From assembly GCA_010093605.1 (NCBI GenBank), contig MU004185.1, positions 517,334 to 581,333 on the forward strand: a stretch of 64,000 nt of DNA, read 5' to 3'. The translations under genes and the position numbers were made by a program. This document shows, one piece after another, positions 6,289 to 28,708 of the stretch; the first letter of the stretch is position 1, and each line of letters opens with the position of its first letter. The notes under the pieces are model-generated. The model was not told the origin of the DNA. It made no database searches and worked only from the letters and a program-made list of their open reading frames with translations. The stretch is from Lophium mytilinum (lineage: Eukaryota).

Positions 6289-8074
6289 ATGAAGTTCATC
6301 CTCACCGCTGTGGCGGCCCTGGTTACTCTGGCCATCGCCCGACCAGGCGTACTCAACGGACCCAACGCCGACGACCACCAGCTCACTACGCCTGCGGAAA
6401 TCCTGTCCGAACTCGACCAGCGTGACCAGACCAAGTCTCAACGTTGTGTGCAATGCGCTGGAGAATACGGCAGCCAATGCTTCGCGGTGAGTGTTCCTCA
6501 GCTGAACTCGCCGGTTCCGTGGCTAATGAGACTGTTGTCTAGTGCAAAGATGTGTCGTGCTTCCAATCATGCAACGACGAAATATGCAACAACTCCAAGG
6601 TAAGACGAGGCATATCTTCTAGGAAAAATGATCTTGCTCACATATCTCTACAGTGTCAAGATTGTGCCTTTTGCTGTACTCCCCAAGAGAGCGAGCTTCA
6701 TCAGCGCGACTCGTCTCCTTGCCAAGGGTGCTACGCAACATATGATGAGTGCATCGAGGTAAGTAACGATGCATTGACCGCACGGCAGTAGACTCTGACA
6801 AGATGTATAGCTATGCCACGATGATGTGGCCTGCCGCAAAGCCTGCGACTCCAACATCTGCAGCTCTCCTGAGGTAGGCAACTACTATACCGAACTCCTT
6901 CCATCGAAGCACAGCTAACGCGCCTCCAGTGCTTCCGTTGCCAGAACTTCCCCTGCATCCATACCGGGCACGTCGATCCCAGCCTCTCGACGCGCGAGGA
7001 CAACAGCTCCGTGGTTCCGGATACTCCACCGCCGACAGAAATGGACTGCAATTGGTGCGCCAAAGAATACGCCAATTGCCTTCAGCATTGTTCACCAATG
7101 ACCGATCAGTGCATCCACCATTGCAACGTCATGCTCTGTGGCAATCAAGAGTGCCGCGACTCCTGTGGCTGGAACATCTGCCCCATACACAAATCCGCCA
7201 TTGACGGCGTCCCTGCAACTCCATCCGCTCTCTCAAAGCGCGAGGAAAACAGCCCCGTCGTCTCAGATACTCCACCACAGACAGCAAGTAGCTGTGATGA
7301 CTGCGACGTATTTTACGACCAGTGCCTTCACAGTTGCAAGTTCACCGATGCGTGTGTCCACTATTGCATGGGCCTAATGTGCAGCAATCCACTGTGCCAC
7401 GACTATTGTGGCTATGAATGCTCCAAGCATGAACCCGCTATCGACGACGTCCCTGCGACTCCATCCGCTCTCTTAAAGCGTGCCGCTCTTCCTATGGCCC
7501 AGGACGTGTGGACGCCTTCTGCCGCCAAGGACGACACGGAAAGCAAAGAGCCTGAACAGGAAGAAATGAACAAGCTCACAATCCGTGCCGCTCTTCCTAT
7601 GGCAGAGGACGTGTGGACGCATTCTACCGCCAAGGACGAACCTGTCTCTCCGGATGTCGCTCCACTCGAAGAAACGAACAAGCTCACGATCCGTGCCGCC
7701 CTTGCTATGCCCCAGGACGTGTGGACGCATTCTGCCGTCAAGAACGAACCCGTCTCTCCGGATGTCGCTCCAGATGTCGCTCCACTCCCCGTTCCCCCGC
7801 CTCCGTGCATTGGGTGCGAGGCTCAGTATCTCAATTGCATCAAGGTAAGTCTTCGTCTGCATCTCTTCTAGTGACCTCTAGAGTATAGCATGGTCTGACA
7901 TGCATCCGCAGCCTTGCCCAGATGATCCTGGATGCCAAGAAGCATGCAAGCATATCGTCTGCCTGAACCCAGACTTGAACCATCGAGTGAGTATACTCTC
8001 GTCAGACTCGTCGAAGATGATTTACTGACGACTTTGAGGAGTGCAAGAACGACTGCGGCTTCAAGGACTGCTAG
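6289..8074 (+). CDS. Secreted cysteine-rich repeat polyprotein (~482 aa, 7 exons), effector or peptide-precursor candidate
   Basis: Signal peptide MKFILTAVAALVTLAIA. Exons 6289-6486, 6543-6599, 6654-6758, 6811-6873, 6930-7844, 7912-7986 and 8039-8074 join in frame through phase-0 GT-AG introns. Five ~10-Cys modules. Confidence 0.85.
7481..7790 (+). repeat. Three coding tandem repeats (AALxMxxDVWTxSxxK[D/N])
   Basis: Repeated DNA tgccgctcttcctatggc...aggacgtgtggacgc at about 7481, 7586 and 7694. Confidence 0.9.
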
Positions 8075-12199: not shown

Positions 12200-13134
12200 G
12201 GCTGAGTATGGTAGTGTTGCGGAAGGTAGTGGTTTGAGTGTGAGAGATTGGTGTGGATTGTGGGTTGTGGGTTGTATGGTGGGTAAGGTATGTGAAGGAG
12301 TGTGTTGGAGGAAGGAAAGTGGTCGGCCAGAGGAAGGGCTATTGAAGCCGCAGAACAATAAGAATCCCCAGCCGCGCTTCTTATTGTTCTTATTGTCGGT
12401 GAAAGTCTTGTGCAGGCAGCGCCAGGTAGCTTTAGGCGCGGCTGGGCGGCCCCACTATGCTGACTCATCCAGGCACGCTGCGCCCTGCCTACGTAGGTGA
12501 AATCTGGGGTCACTGCTGGGCTCCAGCGGTTTCAATAACCTTTCAGATACCCCATAACCAGTTCAATGCGAACAGCGCATCGTGCATATATTCTGCAATT
12601 GGATTGGAGTATGTTTAGTATGCGTATACATTTGTATACACCTGATGCGGCTTGTGCGAATTCAGAATGTCACTCATTTGTGCCCCGCGTGCCCCTCTGC
12701 AAGCTGCCCAATCACGTGCATTCACTATACCACATCTCTTGCTATATGGTCAGGCACTCAATTCACCCAGCGCTATCTGCACAGGTTCAGTCAGAGCTTT
12801 GTGTGGTTCTGACTACGGAGTCACAGATTAGGACATTCCTTGGGCGCGAAAGATTGGCACAATGTGTTTGAAGTAATAGCTTCACCTTTTTATTCTCCCC
12901 TTTTGTTCCCTAAGACAGTTCTAGCTACTGGGTATCCTCTAGGGCGAGCTTCGGACAACCTTGATCCCCCTATAGCTACCCCAATTGGACAAGCAATTCA
13001 CCATTCTATCGTGCCTACTCATCAAGCCGTCACAGCATTGGTGACACCCCATTACTGAATCTTGGATCGCGATCGAAGTCTTTCTAACCAAAGCGCGATG
13101 TCGATATTGAGACTCGAATGCACAGTTACATTGC

Positions 13135-14580
13135 TTAAAACGCTCCTTTGAGTCTTTCAAAGTTCTCCCTGCGCGCCTGTACCTCGCCTAGAGTCTCTTC
13201 GGCGCTGATGACTTTCTGCTCCCCTTCCTCCAGATTCCCCTGTAGATACTGTCTCGTGCTCACAGAGACGTCTTTCGCGGCACTTGCCCATGCTAAGGCG
13301 CTGCTCGCACCCGGCGTAACAAGATGACTCTCATCCGCTAGCCTCCCAATCGTCCGGAGTGATTCCTCCGAAGTAAGAGCCAATTGGTGCCGAAGATACG
13401 TGCCTTGTTGAAGCAAAGCCCGCTCTTCGCGTGCCGTTTGGAGCAGAGACGGCATGAATGGTAATATGTCTACCACCTTGACGCTTTCTGCGTTTGTGTC
13501 GGGACTCGAGGTTTCCACGTCCTTTGGTGGCGCTATTGTCGTGATGTTGGAGTGCTCCTGGCCTTTGACAGCATCCATTGTCTTGACCAGCTCTGCCCTG
13601 ACTGCGACGTACTCCCTATACCGCTCTTCGATCTCTTCAAGGGGCGGCCTCCCCTCCCCGTCGCCATCCCCCGCGTGCGCTGCTCTCTTCTTGACTGGAG
13701 AGGCGTCCTCCAAGACACTCTCCTCCTGCAGTTTCCCCAGCTCGTCCTCTAGCCATCGCACAAGCTCGGCTTTTGCAGCCCTCAGCCCTCGAACCTGCAA
13801 TCTCACCCCAACCTCATCCCCCTCAATACCGCTCTTAGCCTTTATCTTCCTCTCCTCTGTCGCGTCCATGTCCGCCTTTGCGCTGACAACCCCTCTTTTG
13901 ACTCTCCACACCATCTCCTCCACCATCGCCTTCCCACTCTCCTCCCCGATCCCCTCCAACTTCACACTGGGCATATCCGGCTGCTTCCCCACAATCTCCT
14001 CCACCACCTCTCGAACGCCTGTCCTCCTTTTCCCAATCCCTCCAGCCCCACCCTCTGCAAGCCGCGCATCCCATACTTTCTCAACCGCCTTATCCACCAC
14101 CCTCGCTCTCTCCACCTTCCGCCTCAACTTGACCAGCTGGATATACTCCTCCGCCGCCCCGTCCCCACGAGTGACATCCCTCGACGCGCTATCCACAGCC
14201 CGACTTTCCCTCAGCTCTTCGATCTCATCCCGGAGGGCCTGATACCGCTTCTTCGCCGCAGCGTGCGATTGGAGCGCGGAGAGGTATGCAGCACGCACAC
14301 GAGCGTCCCCTCCGCCTTGTAGCTCTTTTGGTGTGCGCTTGACGACGAGTGTGGATGGCGGGGCCGCGAGGGTGAGATGCGTGATGGGGGTCTCGCCATC
14401 TGCACTGTCTCCATCGTTCTCGTATGTGAGTGAGGCGGCGAGGTGTGCAGAGAGCAGACGACGGATGCGGAGGGTTTCGGCTCGAGTGTGGATGTAGGGA
14501 GCGAGGGCGGCGGCGACTTCGGGGAGGGGAGGGTTTTGGGTTGGGTTCATAGGTAGGGGAGACTGTGGTAAGGGAGCCAT
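13135..14580 (-). CDS. Hypothetical coiled-coil protein (481 aa)
   Basis: Long single-exon ORF with helical, charged composition. Family not recognised. Confidence 0.8.
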   Translation of the reverse strand: MAPLPQSPLPMNPTQNPPLPEVAAALAPYIHTRAETLRIRRLLSAHLAASLTYENDGDSADGETPITHLTLAAPPSTLVVKRTPKELQGGGDARVRAAYLSALQSHAAAKKRYQALRDEIEELRESRAVDSASRDVTRGDGAAEEYIQLVKLRRKVERARVVDKAVEKVWDARLAEGGAGGIGKRRTGVREVVEEIVGKQPDMPSVKLEGIGEESGKAMVEEMVWRVKRGVVSAKADMDATEERKIKAKSGIEGDEVGVRLQVRGLRAAKAELVRWLEDELGKLQEESVLEDASPVKKRAAHAGDGDGEGRPPLEEIEERYREYVAVRAELVKTMDAVKGQEHSNITTIAPPKDVETSSPDTNAESVKVVDILPFMPSLLQTAREERALLQQGTYLRHQLALTSEESLRTIGRLADESHLVTPGASSALAWASAAKDVSVSTRQYLQGNLEEGEQKVISAEETLGEVQARRENFERLKGAF

Positions 14581-15288
14581 TCTGTGGTGGTTGCGCTTTG
14601 TAGCTTGTTGCTGTCTTGTTTTTTGTGAAACAAAGAGTGGGGATCGGGAAAAGAACGAACGTCACGCGCTACCACGTGATGATTTTGATGAGCGCAAATG
14701 TGGAGGGTGAAACATTGGTTCGATGCGGGTAGATAGCGAGTCGAGTTAGGAGGTTTTCGTCTTCCACCTGCTAAAGCTAGTATCTACAACTCGTATGGGA
14801 TGGCCTCGGCGTTTCCGAAGCTTATAAAATCTACAGACTTCAGCTTCACAGTGATACTCTACAGCCATAATCGCTGCCCTTATGATGAACACTCTGATTC
14901 ATGTCAATCTCGAACGAGATAGCCAACATGGTCTACCTTGTATGCAGCGGACGAACTCCCCTTCGAAAACTCCCAGCCCGTCATTGCAGCACGTCTCGAA
15001 CACGGACCCAAATGTTCATCTCGTAGATTGCCGTGGCACACGCAGTGTATCTCTCCAAATAACCAATAGATAACACCACGAGGGTAGCTGCAGGTACCTT
15101 TGCCGGGAACCCGGGTCATTCATCGCAAGTCGCCTCCAGTCGGGCGCTTTGGTATCCACCTCCCCAACGAGGTAAGGAGCTTCAGATCCTAGTGACTTCA
15201 TAAGGTAGGTGGGAACTTAAGCTTATTCTCGAGCCGGAATTCAAATATCGTCCAATTCTCATCTCTTTGTTTCCCGATTGTCGCAAAC

Positions 15289-23781: not shown

Positions 23782-24885
23782 ATGTATCAGCGGCACGTCC
23801 GCCCGTCGGCGGGCCTAATAGGGCGGCCGTTATCTCACGACATATCGAGCATTGCCAATGCCTCCCGCCGGGCTTTCCACATCACCTCCTCGACGTGCGA
23901 AGAAAAAGACCCGGCAGCACCAGGTAACTATTCCTACTGCATTTCTAACCTCTCCTATCATACGGCAGTTCCAGGCCTTGTTCTTTTCTAAGACCTAGCT
24001 TATATGCATATAGCATCTCCTCCAACTCCTCAACGCGACTCCCGCGCCGCTCGCTCCAGCAGCGCCTTTGCCCAACTCAACAACCTCCCCCGAAAGTCCA
24101 CCATGGCCCCCATCGGCGGACTACGCGCAGGCGTCTTCAGGAGCGGCCAGAAACCTTCTGGTCCGCCCCCGGCGCAGCTCCTTCAGCGACGGACACCTCC
24201 GGCCAGACTTCCTGATGGAACACTTGCCTCTCCTACTGGGGCACCGTCTGCTGGACCCCCGAAGCTGCTCATCCGGAGAGTCGCAGACCCAAACCAGCAA
24301 TACCGTGACGGGCCCCCAACGGGCCCCGGCGGGTTTGCGCCTCGTGCTCCCCGGGCTCCTCGCGAAGGAAGGGAAGGAGGCGGACGGCCAAGGCGCGAGA
24401 AGAGGGATCGGAAGGACCGTGATGGTCAGAAAGGGCGCAAACGGCCGGAGCCGGAGTTGATTGACGTGGCTGATCATCTCACGGATGGCGACGTGCTACA
24501 TCTCCTGCGGCTGCAGCGCGCAGCGTGGGACCCGAAGCCGTACGAGCCGATATACTCCGCTGAAAGTCAGGCTATCAATGGATTAGTTGAGACTGGGCGG
24601 AAGCTTATCTTTGGGGAAGAGGTGGAGGAGAAGCCATGGATTCGGTTGACGAAGAAGGAGAAGAGAGCGCTGGCGGAGGAGAAGCAACGGGTAGCAGGGG
24701 GAAAATATGAGATCAGCGCACTGGGACTGGCGAAGGGAAGTAAGAAGGAAGAATTGTGGATGGGGACGGCGTTGAGGGGCGCGCAGACGAATGCCTCTTT
24801 TACGACGAAGGATAGGGATATGTTCTTGGACAAGCTATCAGGCTTTATGGGCGTGAAAGCGCCGTTGCAGGCCACTGTGCAGTAG
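23782..24885 (+). CDS. Probable mitochondrial protein of unknown function (2 exons)
   Basis: Presequence-like start (MYQRHVRPS...SRRAFHITS), intron about 23924-24012, then a 293-codon Pro/Arg-rich exon. Confidence 0.75.
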
Positions 24886-25616
24886 GTATCACATCGTTAA
24901 GCTAAGTGTAGAATATGTACATTTACAAACAGTTATTCTGTCTTTAGCCAAACTGTCTAGGAAGTTCCTAGCTACTTGAAGCACATTTCTACATCGAATG
25001 TTTTTCTATATTTGGAGCGACTTGGTCAATCTCTATATCATGATCTATAATCTATGGACATTTCTTCTACAGCATGTTGTTCCTTTTGTTGCTTCTTGTC
25101 CACAAAGCGTCCACGCGTGGTGCATATAGACCACCTATAGCAACGAAGCAACCAGTCACCACTGTTGCTTGTTGTACCCAAAGCGTGGCCTCCGCGTACC
25201 CCAGTAAACAGCTTGAGACACCCCCACCATCTCAAACTCACCTGAGACAGATCCAGCCAATAGGACTATCCAGAGAATATATCTATAACAGCGCTAAACA
25301 TCTATTTAGGACTGTTTACCATTCACTCTACCCTCCACGCTTTTCCAGCCCCGGAGCCCGGAACAGGAAAGTCTTGGGTGCTTGAGGGGTAACGGAGTTT
25401 GGTAGTTACTACGGGTGCTTCTTGTAACCTCTGCGTACCCTCCGCGTGGGCTGGAGCCCAGCAAGCCTTTGCTCGAGATCAGATTTACAGGCTCTGGCCA
25501 AAGGGTGAGGATTCGTGCCAGATATCCACTGCCTGGAAATCCGCATTGGCTTAGCGATTGATCTGGGGAATGTTTGTGACGCTAGGGGTCCTCTGCTTGA
25601 GCGGGGTGCTCAGGAC

Positions 25617-26372
25617 GAGATGTCGAGTGTCAAAGCATAAACCATTCACCGAATTCTGCTTATTCACGTGGCTCACTATTCCTGAATAGGATGTAAAGGC
25701 GAGGATAGATGTCGAGGCATAACCAATTCACCAAATCCCACGCAATCCCGTGGTACCTCAGCGGACGTAAAGGTAAAGATTTCGAGTACGACCAATTCAC
25801 CGAAACGCAATCACGTGCATAAACGGAGCTTCAAGGTTCGAAGGTAAAGGTGTCGCCTTAGAACCAATTCACTGTTTTTTCCTCAATCACGTGGTGTTTC
25901 TAGCGAAGCTGTAGAGGTTGAGATGTTAGAGCACAACCAATTCACCGAATTTCTACGCGATCACATGGCAAAGAAGGTGTTCTAGCGCTGGGAGTCGAGA
26001 TATGACCAGTTCACCGATATCTTCTAAATCACGTGGCGTTATAAGCGAAGTTATCGTTTCCAAGACGTGGAAGTAAGACGAATTCACCGAATCTGGCTTG
26101 ATCATGTGGCAAGTACTTGCTACAAGTAGTCAAGATGTCAGAATGCGAACAAGTCACCGGTTATAAAGCAGCTCGGGTAGAAATTTCGTTGAAGAAGTCA
26201 AGATCGATGTACCTAGACTAAAAATCAATTCACCCAATCTAAAAGCTCACGCGGTTGATCTTGGAGTCTGTCCTGGGACTCTGGCCAAGCAGAATATACA
26301 ACTATCGTAATCTCTCCGCTACAAGAAGGCAACATACATCGAATTCACCATATTGGGTCTAATCACGTGAGC
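25617..26372. repeat. Degenerate non-coding tandem array, 10 units of ~70 bp, each with AATTCACC and TCACGTG motifs
   Basis: TTCACC-type cores at 25645, 25727, 25796, 25868, 25941, 26010, 26083, 26153, 26229 and 26344. E-box or variant about 20 bp downstream in 9 of 10 units. Confidence 0.9.
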
Positions 26373-26580
26373 ATCCCCATACTCCTACATGGACCCTCGG
26401 TACTTTTCGGCTCAAATCTCACATCATCACAAACACCTCGCAGATTTTATGAACATGTATGTCAGATCTATTCGCAAGCTTAGGTAATTTTCGAAGATAA
26501 AACTCCATAGCTCAAACGAAAATGCCCTCAAATACTACAATTACACGTATCAAAAAAGGCTCAACGGCTCACACTCGGCT

Positions 26581-28708
26581 CTAATACTCCAACGTGACCT
26601 TCTGCCCCTTGACCCGTCCGATCACGATGTCAGGCGCGTACTTCGGGATCACTTCATCGTCGTGCAGCATCTCAAACTCCTCCGACGCGTCCTTGCCCAT
26701 GTGCGAGAACAGCGCCTGGGGGCCGCCGGGGTGCTCGTCGACCCAGTTTGTCACGTCGAGCACGATGCCCTTGACTGCGATCCATAGATCCTCTTTCTTG
26801 TTGTGCTTGGCGACTTCCTCAAGCGAAAATTCCTTGTCGGGGATCTTGAAGTCCTTGACGTTGGCGGTTGAGGAGACCTTGCCCGGGTCGGCGGAGTCGG
26901 CGCCCTCTTTTAGGACGGGACCGGCCGATGTCTGCGATTGTTCTGCGATGGTGGAGGAGGAGGATGAACCGGAGCCATTGCCCCATTCTACGGAGACCTT
27001 GCCGGGGGTGTTGGGGTCGATGTGGAGGGATATTTGGCCGAGACGAGAGGCGGCGGAGCCACCACCGCTCTTGAGGAGGTTCTGGAAGAGGTATTTGGAG
27101 GCGGACTCGCCGGCTACTCGTCCGTAGACGACGCAGCCGAGAAGGGAGGAGCCACCGAGACGGTTAGCGCCGTGGACGCCACCAGCCAGCTCACCACACA
27201 CGTAGAGGCCGTCGAAAGGCTTGCCCTCGGAGTTTAGGCACTGCGCTTGGTCGTTGATCTCAATGCCGCCCATGGTGAAATGTAGTACGGGCTCCATCTC
27301 AGCAACGTGAAAGGTGTCGTCGATGTTGAAGGGAAGGTTGTGGAAGTATTTCTTATTCCACTCGTCCTTCTTCTTGCCATCGGCGATGGCGTTGTAGTCA
27401 TCAAAGCTGGCCTCCAGAGCGGCATCGCCGCAGCCGATCAACTTTGCCAACTCCTTGCCGGTCATCTTCTTCATTAGACCACGGCCGGAGTAGTGACGAG
27501 TGTGGAAGTCGAGGATGTTGGAGGCTTTGGAGTTAAGAACAAGTCGGATGGGCCATAAACCCTTCTCCTTCTCTTCCCACATCTTGCCTGAGACGTAATC
27601 ACGGTGACCGAGGTCGTCGCAGAAGCGTACACCCTTGGAGTTGAGGAGGATACCTCCTTCACCACGCAGAGCTGTTTGATATTAGTGGTATGTCTTCTAG
27701 GAAATCTCAGACGTTCTCACCTTCAGCAGCCAAGAATTTCGTCTTTGCTGTTGGGTCCTTGGGGTCTACTAGACCAGTGGGATGCACCTGAACTTTATCC
27801 ATATCAATGCCGTTCGCGCCAATGTTCATCAGCATCTTGTGTCCATCACCAGTGGCGTGTGCACCGTTGGTGGTCGACAGGCCATAGGTATCCGGGCGAT
27901 GCTTCTTCAGCAGCGAGTCTTCCGTAAAATCGGCAGCGTATCCACCAGTAGCCAAGATTACAGGGCCATCCACAACGGTCTCCTTTCCGTTGAAGAGGTA
28001 TGTCACGCCAGTCGCCTTGTTACCATCCTTGTTGACCTTGGTCACCTTAGCCTTCTTGATGAGCTGGACACGGTCTGGCTCGGCATCGGCTAGCTCCTCA
28101 AACCGTTGCATGAGAGCGTATGTGATAGCCATACCAGGGAACTTGGCATCGTGGCCACGATGTGTCCGCGGGAAGGAGTGTCCTCTGAAACTCAGATTAG
28201 CACATGCTCAAGATGATTTCAGTAGTTGAAGAGAGGCTAAAACATACCCTAACCGCGAAACCAGAGTCAAATCGAGGTTGAAGACATCCTGTAGCCACTC
28301 GACGGCCGCGGCGGATTTGTAGGTAAGCACCTTGATCAGATCCGGGCGGGCCTTGTCTCGCGCCGACTTTAGCGTGTCGTCGTAGAACTGCTTGACGCTA
28401 TCCTGGATCTTGTGGTCGACCTGCGTCCTTGTGAGGGCACCATTGATACCCGAGGTAGCCTTTGTCGAGTTGCCGCCCATGAAGTCTGGCAGCTGTCAAT
28501 CCCGCGGCACGGCAAGGATCTGGATGTGTCAAAGAGCTTACTGTTTTTATCGAGGAGCACGACATTGCCGCCGGATAGATAGATGGTGTGAGCAGCGCTC
28601 AGACCGGACACTGTGAATGAGGGTCAGTTACCGCAGCAATCCCGCAGCGTATCCGAGGGCATGTCGTCACTTACAGCCGGCACCAACAACAATGACTCTC
28701 TCAGGCAT
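26581..28708 (-). CDS. OSM1: Soluble FAD-dependent fumarate reductase with C-terminal cytochrome b5 domain
   Basis: VIVVGAGLSGL FAD-binding motif, GGNSTKATSGIN, VQVHPTG, LHFTMGG, GVHGANRLGGSSL, and the b5 heme motif EHPGG. Five exons. Confidence 0.93.

Follow-up and report, generated by a model that had tools for sequence, protein, structure and literature searches.

Several control elements are known in which short protein-binding sites are repeated in tandem. The simian virus 40 (SV40) enhancer carries 72-bp tandem repeats in two near-identical copies upstream of its promoter, the gypsy insulator of Drosophila contains 12 Su(Hw) sites, and the RTS1 fork barrier of fission yeast has repeated motifs of around 60 bp. 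In Aspergillus fumigatus, the TR34 and TR46 repeats of cyp51A comprise two recent, near-identical copies of a 34- or 46-bp module with SrbA, AtrR and CBC sites, located in the promoter 5′ of the gene, and accounts of this module describe a changed regulatory output after its duplication (PMC4954732, PMC9239056). Here we describe an array of ten degenerate units of about 72 bp in Lophium mytilinum, within a stretch of 64,000 nucleotides (nt) (assembly GCA_010093605.1, contig MU004185.1, positions 517,334–581,333 of the forward strand) that we refer to as the window and number from its first letter. The array (25618–26389) lies between the 3′ ends of two convergent genes, one of which encodes a fumarate-reductase-like protein. 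Our best explanation, held tentatively and with somewhat less than even confidence, is that selection has kept it as a DNA docking array for several proteins and that its role is cis-regulatory, either as a 3′ enhancer or upstream activating sequence (UAS) for the reductase gene or as a promoter from which an unannotated transcript, non-coding or antisense, would start.

The array resembles each of these systems in part. It shares with the SV40 repeats a unit of about 72 bp with several factor sites, but consists of ten diverged copies in a fungal 3′ spacer. By analogy, and with sites that are predicted here, it has in common with gypsy and RTS1 the presence of many short protein sites in the same orientation, poorly conserved spacers and multivalency; the organism, factor and motif differ. 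Like TR34 and TR46 as described in PMC4954732 and PMC9239056, it is a head-to-tail composite module in which a bHLH-type (basic helix–loop–helix) site stands by a CCAAT/CGAAT-type pentamer, although its ten copies are old, their linkers have decayed and they are 3′ of both neighbours. Homotypic site clusters and enhancers built from repeats are thus already known; what is unusual is the combination of ten old tripartite units, a fixed inner spacing, a 16-nt box without a named factor and convergent, highly expressed neighbours in a compact fungal genome.

Motif anchoring, alignment and a hidden Markov model (HMM) of the unit delimit ten head-to-tail units in a single (plus) orientation. They lie in a 1.7-kb tail-to-tail spacer between convergent open reading frames (ORFs), the stop codon of one ending at 24885 (plus strand) and that of the other starting at 26581 (minus strand). 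The GC content of the array is 0.446, compared with 0.525 for the window. The TTCACC-type cores that anchor the units start at 25645, 25727, 25796, 25868, 25941, 26010, 26083, 26153, 26229 and 26344, giving core-to-core spacings of 82, 69, 72, 73, 69, 73, 70, 76 and 115 bp. This recount on the cores reproduced exactly the ten units and nine distances listed in an earlier reading made from the letters alone (the sequence-only reading). Start-to-start distances from TTCACC to TCACGTG are 19, 19, 15, 19, 20, 19, 19, none, 18 and 19 nt in units 1–10, each one less than the earlier value solely because a different reference base was used.

The unit contains three boxes, which we defined from a MAFFT alignment of the units and from gap-free columns anchored on each box. 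Box A (consensus aAGATGTCGAG) is moderately kept; this box and its fixed distance to box B are features beyond the two motifs first described. Box B, with consensus A-N-AACCAATTCACCGAAT, is 16 nt long, retains TCAC in all ten units and TTCACC in eight, and has pairwise column identities of 0.8–1.0; a pentamer stands at its left edge in six of the ten units (CCAAT in four and CGAAT in two). Box C, with consensus ATCACGTGG, is a T-flanked class-B E-box that is present in nine of the ten units, with column identities of 0.78–1.0; TC..G is kept in all nine, around a core that is the palindrome CACGTG. Units 2, 5, 7 and 9 have single-base variants of the E-box, and in unit 8 box C is gone and box B is weakened to GTCACC.

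Conservation was measured among the paralogous units of this one locus. Pairwise identity is 0.8–1.0 in box columns and 0.19–0.36 in linker columns (0.255 is expected from base composition), a contrast that is inflated by the anchoring of the alignment on the boxes and by the richness of the linkers in insertions and deletions. Adjacent linkers are still alike, with a mean z of 2.4 versus 0.8 for non-adjacent linkers in local alignments compared with shuffled controls; the strongest pairs are L0–L1 (z 4.6), L2–L3 (4.6), L7–L8 (4.1) and L7–L9 (5.0). Local tandem duplication therefore built the array, and its units are true paralogues. Their linkers share ancestry but have decayed, and between groups of units with linkers at random identity the boxes are still kept.

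Over the first 66 alignment columns, IQ-TREE returned log likelihoods of −707.80 under HKY and −696.33 under HKY+G4 (2ΔlnL 22.9, one parameter), and the slow sites form two contiguous runs, at columns 23–33 and 48–55. The best 11-column block has an identity of 0.83, compared with a simulated maximum of 0.73, and the best non-overlapping 8-column block has an identity of 0.78, compared with 0.74; in neither case did any of 2,000 uniform-rate HKY replicates on the maximum-likelihood tree reach the observed value. Uniform-rate evolution of the units is rejected. The sequence-only reading had stated that the short motifs and their spacing are kept while the linkers have diverged, and the likelihood ratio, the simulations (0/2,000) and the spacing tests given below now back that statement. 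With these block identities the array has the repeated short motifs, kept above their surroundings, that characterize a homotypic cluster of transcription-factor sites.

Repeat-induced point mutation (RIP) is recognized by a TpA/ApT ratio above around 0.89 and a (CpA+TpG)/(ApC+GpT) ratio below around 1.03. The array, with values of 0.79 and 1.02 (window, 0.69 and 1.22) and an observed/expected CpG ratio of 1.12, was judged not to be a RIP-mutated repeat, and with these values neither RIP nor methyl-CpG decay accounts for the pattern. The boxes themselves hold CpA, TpG and CpG, and the differences among linkers include many transversions.

The array is also a degenerate minisatellite, with units in the same orientation, spacings of 69–82 bp plus one of 115 bp and linkers of shared ancestry. 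Minisatellites of the kind reported by Tandem Repeats Finder (TRF) are common in fungal intergenic DNA, and an old one that decays without function, with boxes that reflect anchoring, recent local duplications or gene conversion, is an alternative that we regard as rather improbable. It would accommodate the similarity of adjacent linkers (some duplications being fairly recent), the loss of box C from unit 8 and the E-box variants elsewhere, a unit length that varies (standard deviation 4.3 bp) without helical phasing, and a repeat with no further copy in the window and no known function. It does not account for the rejection of uniform rates or for boxes that are kept between unit groups with linkers at random identity; gene conversion would not pick the same 11- and 8-column blocks in all units, and we saw no RIP or CpG bias that would spare boxes containing CpA, TpG and CpG. 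Were the array neutral after all, it would be a warning that similarity among the paralogous units of a repeat can look like constraint.

Spacing is kept within units. The A-to-B distance is 19 nt in seven of ten units (Rayleigh R 0.66, p 0.009, at 10.5 bp per turn) and the B-to-C distance is 19 nt in six of nine (R 0.77, p 0.002, at the same pitch). From unit to unit the spacing is not helically phased (R 0.41, p 0.22), the absolute phases of box B give R 0.16, and phasing of the array as a whole is rejected. The sequence-only reading had suggested many proteins bound on one face of the DNA; this idea is consistent with the spacing inside a unit and fails across the array.

Unit 1 (25618–25699, plus strand, as are all ten) contains box A GATGTCGAG at 25619–25627, box B CCATTCACCGAAT with its TTCACC core at 25645 and box C TTCACGTGG at 25663–25671, with a longer A-to-B distance of 26 nt. 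Unit 2 (25700–25768) has the same box A, GATGTCGAG, at 25708–25716, box B ACCAATTCACCAAA (core 25727) and a variant box C, ATCCCGTGG, at 25745–25753. Unit 3 (25769–25840), with box A GATTTCGAG at 25778–25786, box B ACCAATTCACCGAA (core 25796) and box C ATCACGTGC at 25810–25818, has a B-to-C distance of 15 nt. Boxes B and C are, respectively, ACCAATTCACTGTT (core 25868) and ATCACGTGG (25886–25894) in unit 4 (25841–25913); ACCAATTCACCGAA (core 25941) and ATCACATGG (25960–25968) in unit 5 (25914–25982); ACCAGTTCACCGAT (core 26010) and ATCACGTGG (26028–26036) in unit 6 (25983–26055); and ACGAATTCACCGAA (core 26083) and ATCATGTGG (26101–26109) in unit 7 (26056–26125). Unit 8 (26126–26201) is the most decayed, with box A GATGTCAGA, box B AACAAGTCACCGGT (core 26153) and no box C. 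In unit 9 (26202–26316), box B ATCAATTCACCCAA (core 26229) and a variant box C, CTCACGCGG (26246–26254), are followed by a linker of 80 nt, and unit 10 (26317–26389), with box B TCGAATTCACCATA (core 26344) and box C ATCACGTGA (26362–26370), lies within the RNA contig of the reductase gene.

The composite is confined to this place in the window. The array holds 6 of the 9 plus-strand occurrences of AATTCACC in the 64 kb, 8 of the 31 of TTCACC and 5 of the 8 of TCACGTG. Three consecutive TTCACCRAW boxes at gaps of 55–80 nt gave two matches in the window, each of them within the array, and none in 100 dinucleotide shuffles. The unit HMM found exactly these ten places (E values of 5.6e-13 to 4.5e-07) and no eleventh match in the 64 kb up to E 100, and an HMM of the B–C composite recovered the ten units at E 0.01 or better, the next match having an E value of 0.12. 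A k-mer cluster scan of the window returned no comparable cluster, save CTTGCC six times within the reductase ORF. TRF did not report the array, which is too degenerate or below its score threshold; a separate repeat search recovers it. Single sites that are not composite occur elsewhere: a high-scoring box C site, ATCACGTGG, at 14672–14680 (minus strand), just upstream of an ORF at 13135–14661; another high-scoring box C site, ATCACGTGC, at 12711 (plus strand); and a weak box B-like site at 12992 (plus strand).

We also scanned metagenomes with three phased TTCACCRAW boxes. At least 120 stretches matched and 119 loci were compared with the unit; among the matches listed, none was unit-like (best nhmmer E value, 0.29), and one (L085) fitted a relaxed B–C pattern at a single site. 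Many of the loci listed have several phased pattern matches each and are unrelated tandem arrays, such as L055, L076, L079, L051 and L021, with 7–28 phased matches at periods of around 58–75 bp.

The analysis establishes the architecture of the array, its box-specific constraint, its duplication history and its lack of coding or structured-RNA signals, features that best fit the cis-regulatory docking platform that we favour. We infer protein binding, the identities of the factors and the regulatory output from the sequence of the array. The ten units that arose by tandem duplication would be tripartite protein-binding modules on duplex DNA, which purifying selection would have retained as a homotypic cis-regulatory platform. 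Each unit of about 72 bp would present three recognition boxes around 19 bp apart, to be bound by a bHLH dimer on box C and by one or two partners on boxes B and A; binding that is cooperative within the unit would explain the fixed spacing inside it. Ten consecutive units could give high local occupancy, or multivalency, and the most likely output would be control of transcription, under certain conditions, from within the 1.7-kb tail-to-tail spacer. That duplicated modules of transcription-factor sites alter expression is established in fungi by the 34-bp SrbA/AtrR/CBC module of cyp51A, as presented in PMC4954732 and PMC9239056.

For box C, a candidate factor can be named. RTCACRTG is the consensus of the Cbf1 type, or centromere DNA element I (CDEI), and box C fits it exactly in five of ten units and fits TCAYRTG in seven; the palindromic CACGTG is what a dimer binding to duplex DNA typically has as its site. 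In the description given for Aspergillus oryzae, DNase footprints in vivo include the motif TCACGTG, where cleavage follows a Cbf1-like pattern, and the 5′ T flank is said to exclude Pho4-type factors (PMC4482085). The earlier suggestion of a Cbf1-type site thus gains from a footprint motif of a filamentous ascomycete, and box C is probably a site of the class that bHLH dimers of the Cbf1/USF type bind. Its copies are sited where read-through from the convergent genes would meet.

The SREBP reading, which had been offered for the same motif, is weak. Neither the SrbA motif from chromatin immunoprecipitation (ChIP), given in PMC4223079 as (A/G)TCA(T/C/G)(C/G)CCAC(T/C), nor the human sterol regulatory element (SRE) TCACNCCAC matches any of the ten units on either strand; only the first six positions of the pattern (ATCACG) agree with the array. 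In this the array departs from the cyp51A module, as it does in that box B is not a clean CBC site. CBC accepts CCAAT and CGAAT (PMC4954732; written as CSAAT in PMC7144946), and the CBC:HapX sites of Aspergillus are set out in the latter source as CSAAT-N12-RWT with a TKAN half-site 11–23 nt downstream. The array shares with them a CCAAT/CGAAT pentamer followed by a second short box at a fixed distance, and the minus-strand TGAT of box C falls 17–22 nt after the left pentamer in five of the six units that carry one. A CBC:HapX site is nonetheless rejected: of the 10 CSAAT pentamers in the array, only 1 has RWT at N12, and the best-kept bases are AATTCACC (0.8–1.0) and not the CC of CCAAT, whose columns have identities of 0.49 and 0.64. 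Two further candidates were rejected, each with one site only: the ZafA/Zap1-type CARGGT, in the purine-rich linkers, and the HSF-type TTCnnGAA. Four units have a TTC-N3-GAA half-palindrome within box B, for which we know of no fungal factor. Literature searches on the box strings brought up nothing but primers and sequences without relation to the array, and those on Cbf1 or TCACGTG tandem repeats in filamentous fungi returned no description of such an array.

The T-flanked E-box also invited a centromere-type reading. The point centromere of budding yeast combines CDEI with a CDEII that spans about 80 bp and is AT-rich (around 90%), and with a CDEIII whose core is TTCCGAA. In that setting the Cbf1 site is single and stands beside CDEII and CDEIII, whereas the array has ten copies, each with two further boxes. 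The AT content of 80-bp windows reaches no more than 0.69 in 24886–26580 and TTCCGAA occurs zero times in the array, so that the centromere-type reading fails. Telomerase-RNA templates or telomere-like repeats were likewise absent from the array.

The array is non-coding, as the sequence-only reading had it: the longest ORF (with an ATG, GTG or TTG start) that overlaps it has 50 amino acids, and ATG-initiated ORFs of the spacer, which RNA cover does not support, reach 103 amino acids outside it. A scan for bacterial-type promoters and terminators was uninformative for a fungus. We think it extremely improbable that the units are an array of small-RNA genes, resembling small nucleolar RNAs, transfer RNAs (tRNAs) or guide RNAs, with conserved boxes and variable inserts. 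The length of about 72 nt and the alternation of conserved boxes with variable stretches would be superficially similar; however, Rfam gave no match over 24500–27000 at E values up to 10, ARAGORN found no tRNA, and RNAalifold predicted 0 pairs on the plus strand and 3 trivial, invariant pairs on the minus strand, with no covarying pair on either. The stability of the whole-array fold is ordinary (z −0.72 and +0.92). To our knowledge, the boxes match neither the C/D nor the A/B box consensus. RNA depth, described below, is very low, although the library may miss small RNAs.

It is very unlikely that the array is a transposon relic, with units that served a transposase as subterminal binding repeats or lay inside a degenerate DNA transposon or miniature inverted-repeat transposable element as its internal repeats. 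Two arms of 19 nt, at 25561–25579 and 26427–26445, form an imperfect inverted repeat (79% complementary) around the array, and bipartite boxes with a fixed spacer might recall recombinase or transposase sites. The inverted repeat is at chance level, being one of twelve pairs of like quality within 1.8 kb; we saw no target-site duplication beside its arms and no transposase ORF near the array, and neither the unit nor the B–C composite recurs in the 64 kb.

The neighbouring genes are both strongly expressed. The last exon of the minus-strand gene (26581–27681, stop codon at 26581–26583) belongs to a flavocytochrome-type fumarate-reductase-like protein with an FAD_binding_2 domain and a C-terminal Cyt-b5 domain. 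The upstream neighbour, whose last exon is at 24012–24885 (plus strand), encodes a protein that is basic, of low complexity and matched by no Pfam family; the Atlas clusters nearest to it consist of hypothetical ascomycete proteins. The gene has a 90-nt intron at 23922–24011 (plus strand, GT..AG) that is spliced out in one contig of run X1 and two contigs of run X4. Of four sequencing runs found, X1 represents the window's own sequence (4/4 contigs at least 99% alike) and is RNA, because one of its contigs skips 23922–24011 with GT..AG ends. Runs X2–X4, from relatives or metagenomes, cover only the coding parts of both neighbours and do not inform on the spacer.

In X1, the reductase contig (2,075 nt, depth 3,074) covers 26232–27673, which takes in unit 10 and places the contig end at box B of unit 9; the apparent 3′ untranslated region (UTR) is 26232–26580 (minus strand), with a contig end that is not a mapped poly(A) site. 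Unit 10 thus belongs to a 3′ UTR. The contig of the upstream neighbour has a depth of 1,620. Two contigs without strand information lie in 25505–26078 (25505–25762 and 25830–26078), mostly within the array, at a depth of about 2.5, around 1,000-fold below the neighbours. The array is not abundant RNA in this run and may be weakly transcribed; the uncovered stretches at 24916–25423 and 26079–26231 are holes in contig data and not evidence of silence. The sequence-only reading placed the array downstream of both neighbours: it is 3′ of both ORFs but not wholly outside transcripts, given unit 10 and the two low-depth contigs. Contig ends are not RNA ends. The high-depth contig of the upstream neighbour breaks off at 24811, 74 nt short of that gene's stop codon, and its 11 unmatched letters repeat a word found around 70 nt upstream; this end is probably an assembly artefact and shows how little the contig ends can be trusted here.

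These data bear on two further alternatives. In the first, the array would act at the level of RNA, as repeated sites for RNA-binding proteins or as a small-RNA sponge, carried by a long non-coding RNA or by a reductase mRNA whose 3′ UTR is extended or that reads through. The single strand orientation of the units, the inclusion of unit 10 in the 3′ UTR contig and the presence of low-depth contigs in the array, with none in the 590 bp to the left of these contigs or in the neighbour's intron, would suit such a role. We nevertheless consider it quite unlikely, because depth is around 1,000-fold under that of the neighbours, the contigs lack strand information, neither strand has a conserved structure, covariation or an Rfam match, and the best-kept box is the DNA-type palindrome CACGTG.

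In the second, the protein-bound array would be a wall between the convergent, strongly expressed genes that stops read-through polymerases, in the manner of Cbf1 at the centromeres of yeast, and perhaps pauses forks or holds cohesin. The 1.7-kb tail-to-tail spacer between genes with contig depths of 1,620 and 3,074, the many tandem sites in one orientation, and the end of the reductase contig at 26232, beyond which cover is 2.5 or less, would suit such a barrier, and Cbf1, a binder of T-flanked E-boxes, is reported as a demonstrated transcriptional roadblock (PMC9371891). Yet contig ends are not RNA ends, the contig of the other neighbour halts ahead of its own stop codon, the reductase transcript passes unit 10 unhindered, nothing points to roadblock termination as a mechanism of this fungus, and ten units are apparently more than would be needed. 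On balance a roadblock is rather improbable. A fuller version, in which each of ten modules with a bHLH dimer and a AATTCACC-binding partner contributes to a chromosomal boundary that ends read-through and perhaps positions cohesin or pauses forks, also seems unlikely. If true, it would be a roadblock or insulator class undescribed in Pezizomycotina; literature searches on the box strings and on Cbf1/TCACGTG tandem repeats in filamentous fungi brought up no such element.

Several points weigh against the cis-regulatory docking array that we prefer. A fungal UAS would not typically lie 3′ of both its neighbours, and no array-driven transcript is seen, X1 having no cover at 24916–25423 and a depth of only about 2.5 in the array. 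The candidate factors are proposed from motif resemblance: the SrbA motif is met in no unit, and box B matches no nameable factor, with a CCAAT/CGAAT pentamer at its left edge in six units and the HapX rule obeyed once in ten. The anchored alignment inflates the contrast between boxes and linkers. Finally, confinement of the composite to this array within 64 kb gives no sign of a general regulatory module, and no unit-like relative appeared among the 119 metagenome loci listed.

If the boxes are bound as we propose, the array would be a natural ten-copy affinity reagent for the fungal DNA-binding factor of the AATTCACCGAA box and a clean test of how the factor of a T-flanked E-box and its partners cooperate when 19 bp invariably separate their sites. 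Because it lies 3′ of convergent genes that are strongly expressed, the array also offers a tractable way to ask whether compact fungal genomes employ arrays of sites as 3′ enhancers, as promoters of antisense transcripts or as barriers to read-through.

The rest of the spacer has features of its own. An ATG-initiated ORF at 25074–25385 (plus strand; 103 amino acids) has a hydrophobic, signal-peptide-like start (MLFLLLLLV...) and no RNA cover in X1. A second repeat family just upstream of the array (25078–25447) consists of three copies of around 44 nt, at 25078, 25154 and 25404 (TGTTGCTTCTTGT..AAAGCGT..CCGCGT-like), and a 10-bp palindrome, CCACGCGTGG, with an MluI-type ACGCGT core, is at 25111–25120. 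The entire 1.7-kb spacer may be one composite control region. The 10-mer CTCTGGCCAA occurs at 25492–25501 and 26279–26288, 787 bp apart and flanking units 1–9; the pair is probably meaningless, as chance alone would produce around one in 1.8 kb. Elsewhere in the window, a 108-bp tandem repeat of 2.0 copies (89% matches) is located at 7560–7772.

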